Assembly: GCA_023703555.1 (NCBI GenBank)
Contig: CP097968.1
Coordinates: forward strand, 765,168-829,167
Origin: SAR86 cluster bacterium
GTDB taxonomy: Bacteria > Pseudomonadota > Gammaproteobacteria > Magnimaribacterales > TMED112
Reading direction: 5' to 3'
Length of the DNA: 64,000 nt
Positions 1-27,306 of the stretch are shown piece by piece. Made by a program: the position numbers and the translations under genes. The stretch's first letter is position 1. Every line of letters begins with the position of its first letter. The notes below the pieces were generated by a model. The model worked only from the letters and a program-made list of their open reading frames with translations, had not been told where the DNA came from and made no database searches.

Positions 1-572
1 GTTCTTCTTGAGTTAATGAAAGTTGTCTTCAGGGATCTAAACTCAAAAGCTAAACGATACCAATCTTTTTCCCCATAATCGTAACCACTTCCATCACCTC
101 CAAGCAAGACTAGATTTTGAGAGTTAGATTCTTTCAAAACTTTGAAGGTTTCAAATTTTGTTGGTGGCAGGTTTGAAGAAATGACTTTATAGACTTTGCT
201 TATGTCCTTTTTTGTTGAGACAATGCCATCAAAACTCTTCATTATTCTAAACTTAGGTGTTCCCACATAAAGAACCTTGGCCCCACTTATCCTGGCAAGC
301 AATAATCCAGGGAAGACTGTTCTTGAGCCAGAACATATCACAAAGTCAAATCTGAACTTTACTAAACTTGGATTTAAAAGCTTTAAAATAAATAAATATA
401 ATTTTTGACTTACTAATGAAAGAAGCTTCTCTAAAAAACCAGGCATAGAAATTAAATCTTTATTCAATAAAAATACATCTTTCTTCCTGTCGTAAGTTTT
501 GATTATATTTCTTAGCCCGAGGCATTGACTTAAATGGCCTAACTTTTTATCGGCAACAATTGCTATTCTCAT
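1..572 (-). CDS. ELM1/DUF1022-family protein; partial, C-terminus lies beyond the window start
   Basis: Not in the ORF track because it runs off the edge. My translation from the ATG at 572..570 reads MRIAIVADKKLGHLSQCLGL...FDFVICSGSRT...LVLLGGDGSGYDY...INSRRT. The pattern resembles the ELM1 family as I recall it. Its ATG overlaps the upstream gene stop (ATGA). Confidence 0.45.
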   Translation of the reverse strand, partial: MRIAIVADKKLGHLSQCLGLRNIIKTYDRKKDVFLLNKDLISMPGFLEKLLSLVSQKLYLFILKLLNPSLVKFRFDFVICSGSRTVFPGLLLARISGAKVLYVGTPKFRIMKSFDGIVSTKKDISKVYKVISSNLPPTKFETFKVLKESNSQNLVLLGGDGSGYDYGEKDWYRLAFEFRSLKTTFINSRR

Positions 573-1288
573 AGCTTGCCATTTGAGAATTTAACAGAAT
601 ATCTTTCACCATCAATTAAAAAAATCTCAGCTTTTCCCCCAGCTTCCTCTACTAAACAAATACCAGCTGCAAAATCCCATAAAAAAATTCCTTTTTCGGC
701 ATAAAAGTCACACTTTCCAGATGCTACATATGCACATGACAAAGCTGCACTTCCAAACATCCTGATTTTTTTCCAACCTTTTAAAGAATCTAAGAACTCC
801 ATTGAGGATGTCACCGACTCCGATGCTGGGAAACCGGTAGTCAGTGTGGCTTTGTTCTTTAAGTCAACTGATGAAACACTAATAACATGATCATTTAATT
901 TTGCCCCATGATCTTTAACAGCCTCATAACACTCATCACTATTAAAATCATAAATAATTCCTATAAGGGATTTATTCCCATTCATTAGTGCTATAGAGAC
1001 GCAACATTGATTTAAGCCTCTAAAATAATTTGCAGTACCATCAATTGGATCAACAACCCATCTCATTTTTTCAACAGCATTTGGAACGATTTCTTCACCC
1101 TGAACACCTATCTTTGTTATAGCAAGCTCGTGTCGTATTAATTCTTCAGTTTTCCTATCTAATTCTAATTTTATGTCACGACCCTCCTCACTTTTGATTA
1201 TTTTTTTTTTGGTTTTTTGTGAAAGTAATAAATTTCCTGCTTTTTTTGCGGTTTTTTTTGCGATTAATCCTAGTTCAATTAAATCCAT
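569..1288 (-). CDS. Inositol-monophosphatase-fold phosphatase (SuhB/CysQ superfamily)
   Basis: ORF 569..1327. Motifs WVVDPIDGTANYFRG and WDFAAGICLVEEAGG are typical of the IMPase fold. I moved the start to MDLIEL (1288) because the first 13 codons overlap galE; either start is possible. Confidence 0.8.
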   Translation of the reverse strand: MDLIELGLIAKKTAKKAGNLLLSQKTKKKIIKSEEGRDIKLELDRKTEELIRHELAITKIGVQGEEIVPNAVEKMRWVVDPIDGTANYFRGLNQCCVSIALMNGNKSLIGIIYDFNSDECYEAVKDHGAKLNDHVISVSSVDLKNKATLTTGFPASESVTSSMEFLDSLKGWKKIRMFGSAALSCAYVASGKCDFYAEKGIFLWDFAAGICLVEEAGGKAEIFLIDGERYSVKFSNGKL

Positions 1289-2279
1289 GATCTTTAACCC
1301 CAACCCAAGCATCCATACACATATCACTTAAGTTATATTTTGCCTGCCAATCTAATACTTCTTTTGCAAGACTTGGATCAGCATAACAAATAGCCACATC
1401 ACCAGGTCTTCTTTTTGAAATCTTAAATGGAATTTCAATAGAATTTACTAATTCAAATGTTTTAATTAATTCAATTACTGATGTGCTTTTACCGGTCCCC
1501 AAGTTAAATATTTTTTTACCATGAGTCTTGAAGATAAAATCAATGGCCGAAAAATGTCCATCAATTAAGTCTGAAATATGAATGTAATCTCTTTCTCCAC
1601 TGCCATCTTTCGTTTGATAATCATTTCCATAAATTTTAAGTTCTTTGTCAATGCCTAGTGCAACTCTGATAATTCTGGGCATAAGATTGTTTGGAGAGTT
1701 TAAAGGGTCTTCGTAAATAAGTTTCTCTTTGTGCGATCCAACTGGATTAAAGTATCTTAAAGAAACAACATCAATAGTTCCCTCTCTAGCCACCTCTGAA
1801 AGCATATTTTCAATTGCTATTTTGGTGCTTCCATACACTGACATAGACTTAATTTCTGCCGTTTCAGGAATTGGCTGAAACTTGCTGTCACCATATACTG
1901 TTGCTGAAGACGAGAATATAAGTTTTTTAACTTTATTTATAGCCATAGCTTTGATTAAGTTTATGGAGCTTATAACATTATTGTCCCAGTATTTAATTGG
2001 GTTGCTCTGGGATTCCCCTACCGCTTTTAACCCAGCAAAATGTACAACTATATCAGGTCTGAAAACTTCAACACAATTAATTAATTGTCGATATTCTTTT
2101 GCAAGATCTAGTTCAGTGAATTCAAAATTTTCCTTGAAAATATTTTTAATTTTTAAAATTTGTTCTGGTTTTGAATTTGAAAAATTATCTATCACTAAAA
2201 CTTTATGATTATTTTTTAATGCCTCAAAGGCAAAAGTAGCACCTATGTAGCCCGCACCTCCGGTAACTAAAATTTTCAC
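1275..2279 (-). CDS. galE: UDP-glucose 4-epimerase
   Basis: 334 aa. Rossmann motif MKILVTGGAGYIG, catalytic YGSTK (YxxxK), LRYFNPVGSH and GERDYIHISDL are classic GalE signatures. Confidence 0.85.
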   Translation of the reverse strand: MKILVTGGAGYIGATFAFEALKNNHKVLVIDNFSNSKPEQILKIKNIFKENFEFTELDLAKEYRQLINCVEVFRPDIVVHFAGLKAVGESQSNPIKYWDNNVISSINLIKAMAINKVKKLIFSSSATVYGDSKFQPIPETAEIKSMSVYGSTKIAIENMLSEVAREGTIDVVSLRYFNPVGSHKEKLIYEDPLNSPNNLMPRIIRVALGIDKELKIYGNDYQTKDGSGERDYIHISDLIDGHFSAIDFIFKTHGKKIFNLGTGKSTSVIELIKTFELVNSIEIPFKISKRRPGDVAICYADPSLAKEVLDWQAKYNLSDMCMDAWVGVKDHGFN

Positions 2280-25855: not shown

Positions 25856-25856
25856 A

Positions 25857-26525
25857 TTATGATTTTAAATCGTTAATTGTATCAATATCTTTAGAACTTG
25901 CATCATTCATTATATAAGGGATTATCTCTTCGTTTGGAATCTTGCTAAATTTTCGAAAAGATTTATCTGAAAAAATATAGATAGCTCCATTTGGCATGTA
26001 GCATTTTGGCAGCTCTTGTCTGTTTTGGAAGGGAGCATTGTTATTAAAAGCTCCTGAAAGATTTCCCGTCTCGTTTAAATAAAAAGCTTTTAAATGCGAA
26101 GAGCTTGTCTCTAAAACTGAAATAATAAGTGAATCATCTGGAGATGATTTAAATAATTCAATACAGTCCTCAATATGTACTTCTGTTCTCAGTGGAGAAG
26201 TTGGCTGTAATAGTATCCACACAATTTCTTCGTCATCAAAATAATGTGATGCATGCTTAATAACACTATTCATCGTAGCACTATCTGAGCAATACTGCTC
26301 CGGTCTTCTAAGAAAAAAAATATTTTTATCTGAGGAATAGCTATTCAATTCAGGCATATTTGTAGAGAGTACAATTTTCTCAATATTTTTAACTTTCTTC
26401 GCGCTTGATAATGTCCATTCAATAAGTGGCTTATCTCTAAAGTTTTGTATGTTCTTTTTCTTTATTCCTTTAGACCCTGCTCTTGCAGGAATAAGGATAT
26501 AAAACTTTTTTTTATAATTTTTCAT
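25857..26525 (-). CDS. neuA: Acylneuraminate cytidylyltransferase (CMP-sialic acid synthetase)
   Basis: 222 aa. ILIPARAGSKGIKKKNI and LLQPTSPLR are typical of CMP-NeuAc/CMP-KDO synthetase-type enzymes. Confidence 0.8.
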   Translation of the reverse strand: MKNYKKKFYILIPARAGSKGIKKKNIQNFRDKPLIEWTLSSAKKVKNIEKIVLSTNMPELNSYSSDKNIFFLRRPEQYCSDSATMNSVIKHASHYFDDEEIVWILLQPTSPLRTEVHIEDCIELFKSSPDDSLIISVLETSSSHLKAFYLNETGNLSGAFNNNAPFQNRQELPKCYMPNGAIYIFSDKSFRKFSKIPNEEIIPYIMNDASSKDIDTINDLKS

Positions 26526-27306
26526 GAATAGTAGACAAAATTCTTTCTGTTGTTGGCGAGCAACAAAAGAAACTTGGGTTCATTAAATTCCCTTTATTGT
26601 AATTTAGTCTTTTCCTGGTTTGCAATGTAAGCATTTTTCCTCCTGCTTCTTCAAGAACAAGTTGGGCTGCGGCAGTATCCCATTCCATTGTTGGACCAAG
26701 TCTTGGATATATATCGGCAGAACCTTCAGCTACAGCACAAATTTTTAGTGAACTTCCATAACTAACGACCTCCACCTTGATAGCAGAGGATAATATCTTT
26801 ATAAAATTTTCAGTTTCTTTATTGGTATGTGATCTGCTTGCAACAATAGTTAATTTTTCCCCAACCTCACTTTTAACAGAAATCTGTTCTTGATTTTTAT
26901 ACGAGCCTTTTCCTTTTTGAGCACAATATAAAGATTGAGTAGCGGGGGCATAAACCAGTCCAAAAATTGGATAATTCTTAAAGCATAAAGCCACATTAAT
27001 TGTATAGTCATTTCCCCTTCTAATAAATTCTTTGGTGCCATCTATGGGGTCTATAACCCAATAATATTTCCAGCTTTTTCTTTCATTATGTTCACATAAT
27101 TTTGTTTCCTCTGAAATGATGTTTTGATATTTCGAAGTCTTTAAAAAATGAAACAACTCATTATTTACAAGAGCGTCTGCTTCTGTTAAAGGGGAACCAT
27201 CATTTTTATAAGATAGGATGAATTTTCTTTTCTTAATTATTTCAACTTCGAGGCCAAGTTCGTAAACAAGTGCTTGAAGTTGATTCACAAAATTATCATT
27301 TATCAC
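26512..27306 (-). CDS. cysQ: 3'(2'),5'-bisphosphate nucleotidase (PAP phosphatase)
   Basis: 264 aa. It has WVIDPIDGTKEFIRRG and MEWDTAAAQLVLEEAGG. It is adjacent to cysNC. Confidence 0.75.
   Translation of the reverse strand: MINDNFVNQLQALVYELGLEVEIIKKRKFILSYKNDGSPLTEADALVNNELFHFLKTSKYQNIISEETKLCEHNERKSWKYYWVIDPIDGTKEFIRRGNDYTINVALCFKNYPIFGLVYAPATQSLYCAQKGKGSYKNQEQISVKSEVGEKLTIVASRSHTNKETENFIKILSSAIKVEVVSYGSSLKICAVAEGSADIYPRLGPTMEWDTAAAQLVLEEAGGKMLTLQTRKRLNYNKGNLMNPSFFCCSPTTERILSTIHEKL

Follow-up and report, generated by a model that had tools for sequence, protein, structure and literature searches.

A probable replacement-type hypervariable glycan locus of SAR86 with a predicted sialic acid, fucose and sulfate haplotype and hyperdivergent essential genes at its border

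Replacement flexible islands are exchanged between strains by homologous recombination and show extra divergence in the genes bordering them (PMC4033161). For the SAR86 clade, a hypervariable region carrying glycosyltransferases, a GDP-mannose dehydratase and acetyltransferases is already known (PMC3569297, PMC3358033), and its poor coverage in metagenomes has been noted (Dupont 2012, PMC3358033; Rusch 2013, PMC3569297). In the consulted parts of these two reports, the borders and haplotypes of the region are not resolved, and genes for sialic acid, a sulfotransferase or the supply of 3'-phosphoadenosine 5'-phosphosulfate (PAPS) are not mentioned. In this study, 64,000 nucleotides (nt) of a SAR86 cluster bacterium (GCA_023703555.1, contig CP097968.1, positions 765,168 to 829,167, hereafter the window) were analyzed, which contain the same kind of region in the same clade. 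The segment from approximately 4.1 to 36.05 kb of the window is probably a replacement-type hypervariable surface-glycan locus of the SAR86 population, exchanged by homologous recombination. SAR86 members rank among the surface ocean's most abundant heterotrophs, and their cell surface is what meets phages and grazers and enters dissolved organic matter.

Gene functions were assigned based on Pfam and NCBIfam profile matches against curated cutoffs and on PDB sequence matches. NCBI entries URQ65062 to URQ65106 represent proteins identical to those of the window, and the window DNA is also present in the single-cell assemblies GCA_902518645.1 and GCA_902620825.1 (99.985% identity in the latter). 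An earlier note, prepared from the sequence of the window alone, had described an almost unbroken minus-strand run of glycan genes. This run is real and extends over positions 569–30284, whereas the right half of the window is filled with housekeeping genes (ahcY, metK, pheST, rplT, rpmI, infC, uvrC, pgi, pyrF, rpsA, cmk, aroA, gyrA, pntAB, scpAB and a resistance-nodulation-division (RND) pump). Loci used for comparison originated from single-cell genomes (L083, L177) and, within the set L083–L091, also from metagenome contigs. Left contexts of the L083 type were found by exact-protein look-up with WecA, a look-up with ribosomal protein L20 yielded nine further right-side contexts, and synteny in relatives was reconstructed from such exact-protein look-ups.

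The position of the locus is constant across strains, namely between wecA-galE and pheS, and strains that are 95–99.9% identical outside the locus differ in the cargo genes within. On the left side, the window is 98–99% identical at the nucleotide level to L083–L091 from position 1 to approximately 4,084; the match runs 11.8 kb further to the left at the same level, and WecA, GalE, IMPase and Elm1 share 99.6–100% amino acid (aa) identity with L083. Past position ~4,084, which lies within the tail of the acidic repeat protein gene, DNA similarity to these loci vanishes. The next two genes, encoding YjbH and the outer-membrane polysaccharide export (OPX) protein, share 31% and 34% aa identity with their L083 counterparts and lack any DNA similarity to them, and the L083 island carries other genes upstream of them (two Ugd, Bac_transf, DegT, epimerase). 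On the right side, the run from aroA to pheS is syntenic in L177–L186 and L193. To the right of position ~36,045, L177 and the window differ by 27 mismatches over 10.6 kb; to the left of it, inside pheS, divergence changes abruptly to 25–30%. In all strain pairs compared, the onset of divergence was located 50–250 nt into pheS.

From these strain comparisons at both edges it follows that the variable region spans approximately 4.1 to 36.05 kb, comprising non-homologous cargo up to 30.3 kb and then a 5.7-kb hyperdivergent block of essential genes. The borders previously proposed at 569 and 27306 are thereby replaced by ~4,084 and ~36,045. Conspecific single-cell genomes and metagenome contigs, when compared with the window, substantiate the idea of a strain-variable hypervariable glycan region; alignment of related loci revealed synteny in place and variability in content. 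Genes shared within the locus occur as very divergent alleles (yjbH, the OPX gene, wzz, short ugd, ahcY, metK and pheT), and beyond ahcY and tRNA-Cys the relatives possess different genes. For example, the slot between tRNA-Cys and tRNA-Leu contains short ugd alone in L177, an epimerase gene and short ugd in L179, and cysD-cysNC-DUF2061-cysQ-neuA together with short ugd in the window. Furthermore, several long metagenome contigs break off at either edge, which is the behavior expected of an assembly graph at a fork. CysD, MetK and the DUF2061 protein of the window have exact copies on only three, three and four contigs, respectively, while the exact L20 sequence occurred in 257 blocks; exact look-ups of MetK, NeuA, CysD and DUF2061 returned the window's own haplotype only. 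Within a 90% clustering of approximately 15 billion proteins, MetK, PheS and CysD of the window are singletons, whereas L20 and GyrA share their clusters with hundreds of other proteins. As a point against the replacement reading, the linkage of left and right haplotypes is established for the window's own type only.

A marked contrast between strains was observed in the essential genes at the right border (30384–36045). Pairs that are 99.1–99.4% identical over 10 kb of core sequence are only 74–87% identical through pheT, metK and ahcY, and between strains with cores 95–99.7% identical, the segment from the variable part of pheS to ahcY shows 70–87% nucleotide identity. PheT of the window shares 57–58% aa identity with conspecific PheT, the corresponding values being 71–81% for MetK and 79–82% for AhcY. 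At least four PheT allele classes (57–84% identity between classes) were distinguished, and at least five MetK/AhcY classes exist among strains with flanks 95–99.7% identical; between all five haplotypes, MetK is 71–81% and AhcY 80–85% identical. Since L179 and L182 share PheT (98% alike) but not MetK (only 81%), breakpoints must also be located within the divergent zone. The homologue search with the window's PheT was bimodal, with a 644-aa type 82–92% identical, found on contigs of up to 1.1 Mb, and the 645-aa conspecific type 57–59% identical. In L193, representing a different SAR86 lineage, PheT is 91% identical to that of the window, and nucleotide identity to the window amounts to 88–94% over 33.6–36.05 kb, but only 68–79% over 36–46 kb. 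Judged by these identities, pheT of the window and the remainder of the chromosome stem from different SAR86 lineages. The block has a GC (guanine plus cytosine) content of 37.7%, compared with 34.2% for core genes, and a GC content at third codon positions (GC3) of 0.41 in pheT.

Coexistence of these PheT and MetK/AhcY classes beside nearly identical flanks could also reflect an ancient balanced polymorphism, i.e., divergence in place within the species and no import. The pheS boundary common to all pairs and the metK-ahcY stretch of the window, which is approximately 70–80% identical to all sequences found, are compatible with this explanation. As a sole cause it is unlikely, given the close match of pheT to a lineage with far more distant neighboring genes, the occurrence of the 644-aa PheT type on contigs of about 1 Mb from other genomes, and the deviating composition of the block. 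Import and in-place divergence may act together. Single-cell and metagenome assemblies can be chimeric, so a mosaic created by assembly or single-cell artefacts was considered as well; this is extremely improbable, as the haplotype is repeated in a second single-cell genome at the identity given above and a 1.0-Mb contig encodes its proteins, other haplotypes recur in independent samples (L083/L084/L085/L091 and L179/L181), the junction lies at the same place in all pairs, and the genes of the block are all intact. The border alleles represent extreme hitch-hiking of essential genes beside a glycan locus, and pheT, metK and ahcY are therefore unsafe phylogenetic or population markers in this group. 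Between metK and ahcY, a cytidylyltransferase-like domain fused to a mannose-6-phosphate isomerase cupin C-terminal domain is encoded (31733–32503); this fusion is present in most haplotypes (60–73% aa identity) and was not called in L179 and L181.

An integrative genomic island that entered at the 3' end of tRNA-Leu by means of a site-specific recombinase had been suggested by the orientation of this gene, the 3' end of which faces approximately 20 kb of cargo, and by the slightly lower GC content of the cargo compared to the core. However, no integrase, transposase or phage gene was found among the window's open reading frames (ORFs) by Pfam and NCBIfam searches, the 3' end of tRNA-Leu does not recur within three mismatches, and flanking direct repeats were not found. 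Moreover, variable sequence lies on either side of the tRNA gene, which is retained in L177, L179 and L182 and kept with its short-ugd and wzz neighbors in other haplotypes, and the actual edges are located in the repeat ORF and in pheS. With no integrase, no repeats and an internal tRNA gene, the integrative element was rejected as a very improbable origin of the locus. Regarding composition, cargo genes have a GC content of 31.4% versus 34.2% for core genes (Mann-Whitney p = 2e-5), while GC3 amounts to 24.6% versus 25.9% (p = 0.10), so that the shift resides at codon positions one and two. The drop reported in the earlier note (25–30% versus 30–55%, from hand-counted 60-nt lines) is real in direction, but its large size is not borne out: lines between 569 and 27306 average 31.8% GC (5–95% range 22–43%) and the remaining lines 35.1% (23–45%), the ranges overlapping almost completely.

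For the replacement-type locus, it is proposed that whole haplotypes or pieces thereof would be swapped via homologous recombination in the conserved flanks, sometimes between lineages; the crossovers would lie inside pheS and close to the repeat ORF. Foreign alleles of adjacent essential genes would hitch along, and phage or grazer pressure probably maintains the diversity. As in replacement islands of Alteromonas, Pelagibacterales and other aquatic bacteria (PMC4033161, PMC4898812, PMC11898729), position and neighbors of the locus are the same between strains; gene sets differ yet share their function, marks of mobile elements are missing, and shared genes at the border show raised divergence (PMC4033161). 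The border divergence is far stronger here than in those islands: it covers about 5.7 kb of essential genes with 19–43% aa divergence and is partly traceable to another SAR86 lineage, and the cargo includes a sulfate-activation cassette. New in comparison to the earlier SAR86 reports is that the borders, the haplotype structure and the probable exchange mechanism of the hypervariable region are resolved, along with the extreme divergence of the bordering essential genes, which by sequence affinity is partly of foreign-lineage origin.

The gene content of the window is summarized in Table 1. Most functions listed in the earlier note were confirmed by profile matches (initiating transferase, GalE, glycosyltransferases, acetyltransferase, sulfotransferase, Wzy, exporter, OPX, YjbH, neuC-neuB-neuA and gmd-fcl), but two Gfo/Idh/MocA-like genes and the PAPS module had been overlooked. 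Of the latter, CysQ is encoded inside the range 569–27306, while the other genes of the module are mostly located past its right border. Instead of 'three to four' GT-A glycosyltransferases, three GT2 enzymes are present, in addition to a GT38-like sialyltransferase that had been missed.

Table 1. Positions of genes and composite features in the variable locus and its left flank, with supporting matches (cutoffs as curated for the respective profile).
Feature	Position	Strand	Evidence or remark
Partial Elm1-like gene	1-572	-	conserved left flank; Pfam/NCBIfam
IMPase-family gene	569-1312	-	conserved left flank; Pfam/NCBIfam
GalE	1275-2279	-	343.8 bits, cutoff 262.3
WecA/MraY-family initiating transferase	2276-3316	-	PF00953
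Secreted acidic repeat protein	3562-4242	+	signal peptide, acidic region, (PEPT)n, (GT)n tail
YjbH/GfcD-like protein	4288-6252	-	376.5 bits
OPX protein	6236-8746	-	Poly_export, three SLBB, GfcC_C; Pfam
Cytoplasmic protein, 225-231 aa	8743-9438	-	no Pfam, NCBIfam or PDB match
Short-chain dehydrogenase/reductase (SDR) epimerase, UDP-glucuronic acid (UDP-GlcA) 4-epimerase-like	9407-10357	-	Pfam, PDB ranking
TuaG-like GT2	10354-11184	-	
WcaE-like GT2	11097-11801	-	
PAPS-type sulfotransferase	11801-12619	-	Sulfotransfer_1 (PF00685)
Left-handed beta-helix (LbH) O-acetyltransferase	12616-13179	-	
ATP-binding cassette (ABC) exporter, fused transmembrane and nucleotide-binding domains (TMD-NBD), PglK/MsbA-like	13181-14908	-	
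Third GT2	14917-15819	-	
EpsG/Wzy-like polymerase	15798-16850	-	PF14897 50.4 bits, cutoff 30.1
NeuB	16852-17880	-	Pfam/NCBIfam, PDB
GT38-like sialyltransferase	17992-18966	-	PF07388
Gfo/Idh/MocA-like protein 1	18959-19918	-	
Gfo/Idh/MocA-like protein 2	19899-20873	-	
NeuC	20830-21957	-	TIGR03568 396.7 bits, cutoff 235.9
Fcl	21950-22900	-	422.7 bits, cutoff 500
Gmd	22897-23991	-	541 bits, cutoff 415
Haplotype-shared internal module (Wzz-like, tRNA-Leu(taa), short Ugd-like)	23988-25855	-	
Wzz-like protein	23988-24908	-	two terminal membrane helices by eye
tRNA-Leu(taa)	24924-25010	-	
Short Ugd-like protein	25010-25855	-	N-terminal and central domains, GGACFPKD motif
Activation cassette neuA-cysQ-DUF2061-cysNC-cysD	25857-30284	-	occupies the tRNA-Cys to tRNA-Leu slot
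NeuA, CMP-nonulosonate cytidylyltransferase	25857-26525	-	PF02348 75.4 bits
CysQ	26512-27306	-	226.4 bits, cutoff 228.8, borderline
DUF2061 protein	27296-27517	-	membrane protein, 73-74 aa
CysNC (CysN-CysC fusion)	27517-29391	-	853.6 bits, cutoff 715
CysD	29391-30284	-	490 bits, cutoff 413
Hyperdivergent core block (tRNA-Cys, ahcY, cytidylyltransferase-cupin fusion, metK, pheT, 3' three-quarters of pheS)	30292-36045	-	
tRNA-Cys	30292-30365	-	

Within the cargo, a block of sialic acid genes was identified, and N-acetylneuraminic acid (Neu5Ac) is genetically well supported as a predicted component of the polymer, as the earlier note had anticipated. NeuB shares 53% full-length identity with the Neu5Ac synthase of Neisseria meningitidis, with a single one-residue gap, and scores 384 bits against this enzyme compared with 150 bits against PseI. 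Genes for a 4,6-dehydratase, an aminotransferase and a diacetamido-sugar N-acetyltransferase (DegT-, PglD- and PglF-type) were not found in the island by Pfam and NCBIfam searches. The GT38-like protein matches PF07388 with 51.2 bits (cutoff 23.3), as do 29 of its 30 aligned relatives. GT-B sialyltransferases are characterized by the motifs D/E-D/E-G and HP. Both are present ('SEDGG' and 'KFHPR'). All 30 relatives share G116, Y120, K237, H239, P240 and R241 without exception, and at least 90% of them have E113. The family is sparse, with 62 relatives among 1.84 billion representatives, the best being 31% identical.

A nonulosonic acid of the legionaminic, pseudaminic or Kdn type in place of Neu5Ac was considered with respect to the same enzymes. 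Several scores speak for it and against Neu5Ac: NeuB, with 357.3 bits, is just below the cutoff of TIGR03569 (399.65), and NeuC matches the N,N'-diacetylbacillosamine (diNAcBac) 2-epimerase of Acinetobacter baumannii (190.7 bits) and human GNE (188.1 bits) equally. The TIGR03568 family, to which NeuC belongs, also spans legionaminic-pathway enzymes, so NeuC alone does not discriminate between the pathways. Moreover, among NCBIfam profiles NeuA matches PseF best, with a score under the cutoff, and Gfo/Idh/MocA genes are shared with the legionaminic-type cluster L197. On the other hand, NeuB is merely 33% identical to NeuB of L197, the best PDB match of NeuA is a CMP-Neu5Ac synthetase (with 170.5 bits against the Vibrio cholerae enzyme 6ifd), and the enzymes of the diacetamido-sugar routes are missing from the island. 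Together with the meningococcal affinity of NeuB, this renders a sugar other than Neu5Ac rather unlikely. The two Gfo/Idh/MocA-like oxidoreductases are very divergent, are flanked by neuC and the sialyltransferase gene and yielded no informative NCBIfam match; cluster L197 likewise has a gene of this kind. Neither they nor the GT38-like protein have a useful PDB sequence match.

As in the sialic acid capsules of N. meningitidis and Escherichia coli K1, whose gene sets include a polysialyltransferase, NeuC, NeuB and NeuA (SiaA, SiaC, SiaB) are accompanied by a transferase of the PF07388 family. Unlike in these capsules, ABC capsule export of the KpsMT/KpsCS type is missing from the window, and the transferase is very divergent. 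It is encoded in a heteropolymer cluster with Wzy, so that addition of a single sialyl residue is likelier than formation of polysialic acid.

Sulfate, likewise, is genetically well supported as a predicted constituent, in agreement with the earlier note. The sulfotransferase aligns to SULT1B1 and retains the 5'-phosphosulfate-binding (5'-PSB) loop (PKxGxTW), the catalytic His and the 3'-phosphate-binding (3'-PB) element RNGFDVLSS (RxxxDxxxS), these positions being invariant or nearly so in 44 relatives. A structure model of the protein (pLDDT 87.9) has the fold of PAPS sulfotransferases, with SULTs, Teg12 and StaL as Foldseek top matches (TM-scores 0.6–0.7). The locus also contains its own CysD, CysNC and CysQ. 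The earlier note had named loss of PAPS-binding residues as an objection; these residues are present with respect to 5'-PSB, His and 3'-PB, but the third, C-terminal PAPS element is degenerate ('FVNK...' versus the consensus 'FVRxGxxGxWK'), which counts against the prediction. The closest relatives retain the R but not the glycines of this element (R-K-G / GxxGxxK of cytosolic SULTs).

Apart from a cluster-mate with 99% identity, the nearest relative of the sulfotransferase is 37% identical and encoded in L197. In this locus (10001–11357), the pair of sulfotransferase and LbH acetyltransferase (37% and 54% aa identity) adjoins the flippase gene of the legionaminic-type cluster, so the two genes resemble a portable module for decorating nonulosonate glycans. 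The unrelated marine metagenome contigs L128 (1–15625) and L134 (1–9238) carry gmd-fcl and cysQ along with Sulfotransfer_1 (L128) or cysNC (L134), so that glycan clusters for fucose plus sulfate seem to occur repeatedly among marine bacteria. When the fetched parts of the other haplotypes were searched with a profile of the sulfotransferase and its relatives, L128 alone gave a match.

The cysD-cysNC-DUF2061-cysQ cassette is absent from this site in L177 and L179–L182 and recurs in the SAR86-like glycan loci L187–L192. CysD relatives with 78–84% identity are common, and the loci examined represent the same slot or other glycan clusters, always in the order cysD-cysNC-DUF2061-cysQ; among the matches listed, relatives of CysNC (genome contigs) and CysQ (metagenome contigs) are all at most 52% identical. 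The DUF2061 gene lies between cysNC and cysQ and overlaps both in the window, in L187 (7070–7294) and in the L188 type (5287–5511). In unrelated loci, DUF2061 adjoins cysNC in just one of 80 cases.

Rhizobial NodPQ-NodH and Xanthomonas RaxPQ-RaxST combine PAPS supply of the CysD/CysN-CysC type with a neighboring PAPS-dependent sulfotransferase acting on a secreted or surface product. The window resembles these systems in having a dedicated PAPS supply plus a sulfotransferase. It differs in that the acceptor is presumably a polysaccharide repeat unit, the cassette additionally includes CysQ and DUF2061, and it resides in a locus that varies between strains, in a clade for which sulfate assimilation is reported to be missing. 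According to the report on SAR86 assemblies, these are devoid of sulfate uptake and of assimilatory sulfate reduction (PMC3358033). From this report and from the missing cassette in conspecific strains, a role in sulfation is the best inference for CysD, CysNC and CysQ. That these enzymes instead serve sulfur assimilation is quite improbable. CysDN is assimilatory in many bacteria, and L187 and L188 possess the cassette while a Sulfotransfer_1 relative was not found in the fetched parts of either, an observation that also counts against the sulfation role. However, the cassette is located within a glycan variable region, it includes the APS-kinase fusion and the PAP (3'-phosphoadenosine 5'-phosphate) phosphatase CysQ but neither cysH nor cysIJ, and the sulfotransferase gene is 15 kb away in the same minus-strand run.

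Fucose is a further predicted component with good genetic support. The GDP-L-fucose route foreseen in the earlier note is encoded by Gmd and Fcl, but the transfer step is not covered: no GT10, GT11 or other recognized fucosyltransferase was found in the island, and the WcaE-like GT2 is a mere lead for this function. Fcl is just below the NCBIfam cutoff, though clearly the best match. Both points count against a fucosylated polymer.

A uronate is weakly indicated. Of its anticipated routes, the Ugd-like and SDR genes are present, but the short Ugd-like protein is devoid of the C-terminal domain, and the link of the SDR protein to UDP-GlcA epimerization is a PDB ranking, led by 5u4q (deposited as dTDP-glucose 4,6-dehydratase), followed by the Bacillus cereus UDP-GlcA 4-epimerase 6zl6, with MoeE5 lower. 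Short Ugd is 51% identical at the amino acid level in relatives where it was found. Proteins of 281–290 aa with the GGxCxxKD motif kept are encoded beside tRNA-Leu in L177 (16349–17209), L179 (16794–17651) and L188 (7202–8074). A truncated pseudogene was ruled out, given the conservation at 281–290 aa in several haplotypes. For the cytoplasmic protein encoded at 8743–9438, an H-x-D...H pattern was noticed by eye; its single-sequence AlphaFold model (pLDDT 31) was unusable.

The E. coli group 4 capsule system (gfc/yjbEFGH) and the wbfF-type OPX of Vibrio are known systems comparable to the export pair. Similar to the group 4 capsule, the window encodes OPX, a YjbH/GfcD-like protein and a GfcC-type domain together with a WecA-started, Wzy-dependent synthesis. 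Unlike in that system, neither the YjbF/GfcB lipoprotein nor the tyrosine kinase-phosphatase pair Etk/Etp was found in the window by profile searches, GfcC_C is fused to OPX, and the flippase is of the ABC type instead of Wzx. The initiating transferase matches PF00953 with 97.5 bits, and its best NCBIfam match is WecA, under the cutoff. The Wzz-like protein shows a weak match to PF02706 (E-value 0.39), while the protein at the same position in L179, which is 28% identical, carries this domain.

Campylobacter jejuni PglK and Helicobacter pylori Wzk are fused TMD-NBD ABC flippases acting in lipid-linked-oligosaccharide pathways that operate without Wzx. The window's exporter is of the same fused architecture in a pathway without Wzx, and PglK is its best NCBIfam match. 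Since no Wzx is present, it is presumed to be the flippase for lipid-linked oligosaccharides, and the gene set suggests Wzy-dependent assembly in which an ABC protein would act as flippase. Speaking against this assignment, the exporter scores only 202 bits against a PglK cutoff of 1000, with MsbA, CydD and type I secretion ABC families scoring nearly as high, and a Wzx (Polysacc_synt/MOP) of the conventional route was not found in 1–36 kb. Likewise unfavorable to the reconstruction as a whole, gene absences refer to the window, and cysH, a sulfate transporter, full-length ugd and waaL could be encoded elsewhere in the genome.

Based on the predicted functions, WecA would begin the repeat unit on undecaprenyl phosphate, and the three GT2 enzymes and the GT38-like sialyltransferase would extend it. 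Donors would be CMP-Neu5Ac (NeuC, NeuB, NeuA), GDP-L-fucose (Gmd, Fcl) and UDP-hexoses or possibly UDP-uronates. The cytoplasmic sulfotransferase and the LbH acetyltransferase would decorate the unit. CysD and CysNC would supply the PAPS locally, and CysQ would clear PAP, the by-product of its use. Subsequently, the PglK-like ABC protein would flip the unit over the inner membrane, Wzy would polymerize it with assistance of the Wzz-like co-polymerase, and the polymer would be exported by the OPX-YjbH pair and/or ligated to lipid A-core.

A haplotype in which a self-contained PAPS cassette accompanies predicted Neu5Ac, fucose and sulfate is new compared to the consulted parts of the SAR86 reports. 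The existence of a glycan hypervariable region in SAR86 had already been reported (PMC3358033, PMC3569297). The combination yields a concrete prediction that can be tested: bacteria of a clade said to lack sulfate assimilation would bear an acidic surface polymer resembling animal glycans. A more specific scenario is offered tentatively. The product could be a sulfated, O-acetylated sialoglycan in which a portable sulfotransferase-acetyltransferase pair places sulfate on or next to the nonulosonic acid. A portable cysD-cysNC-DUF2061-cysQ cassette would feed this reaction in a clade otherwise unable to use sulfate, at a locus rendered hyperdiverse by cross-lineage recombination that replaces pheT, metK and ahcY with alleles 20–43% divergent at the amino acid level.

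Regarding the secreted acidic repeat protein at the left edge, homologues are encoded in L083 (9049–9756), L088 (492–1247) and L091 (1980–2543). Its C-terminal tail varies by haplotype: the window has (GT)n and L088 has (DT)n(GT)n, whereas the L083 type shows a mucin-like tail rich in Ser/Thr. The protein might be a substrate of glycosylation. A scan for promoters and terminators in the window gave no excess above chance, an ops/JUMPstart element was not found, and the two tRNA genes are the only Rfam matches. Finally, within the housekeeping half, the gene at 57529–58338 encodes 269 aa comprising two DnaT DNA-binding domains (PF17948, 137 bits), adjoining the gene for 3-deoxy-D-arabino-heptulosonate 7-phosphate (DAHP) synthase and the RND efflux operon.

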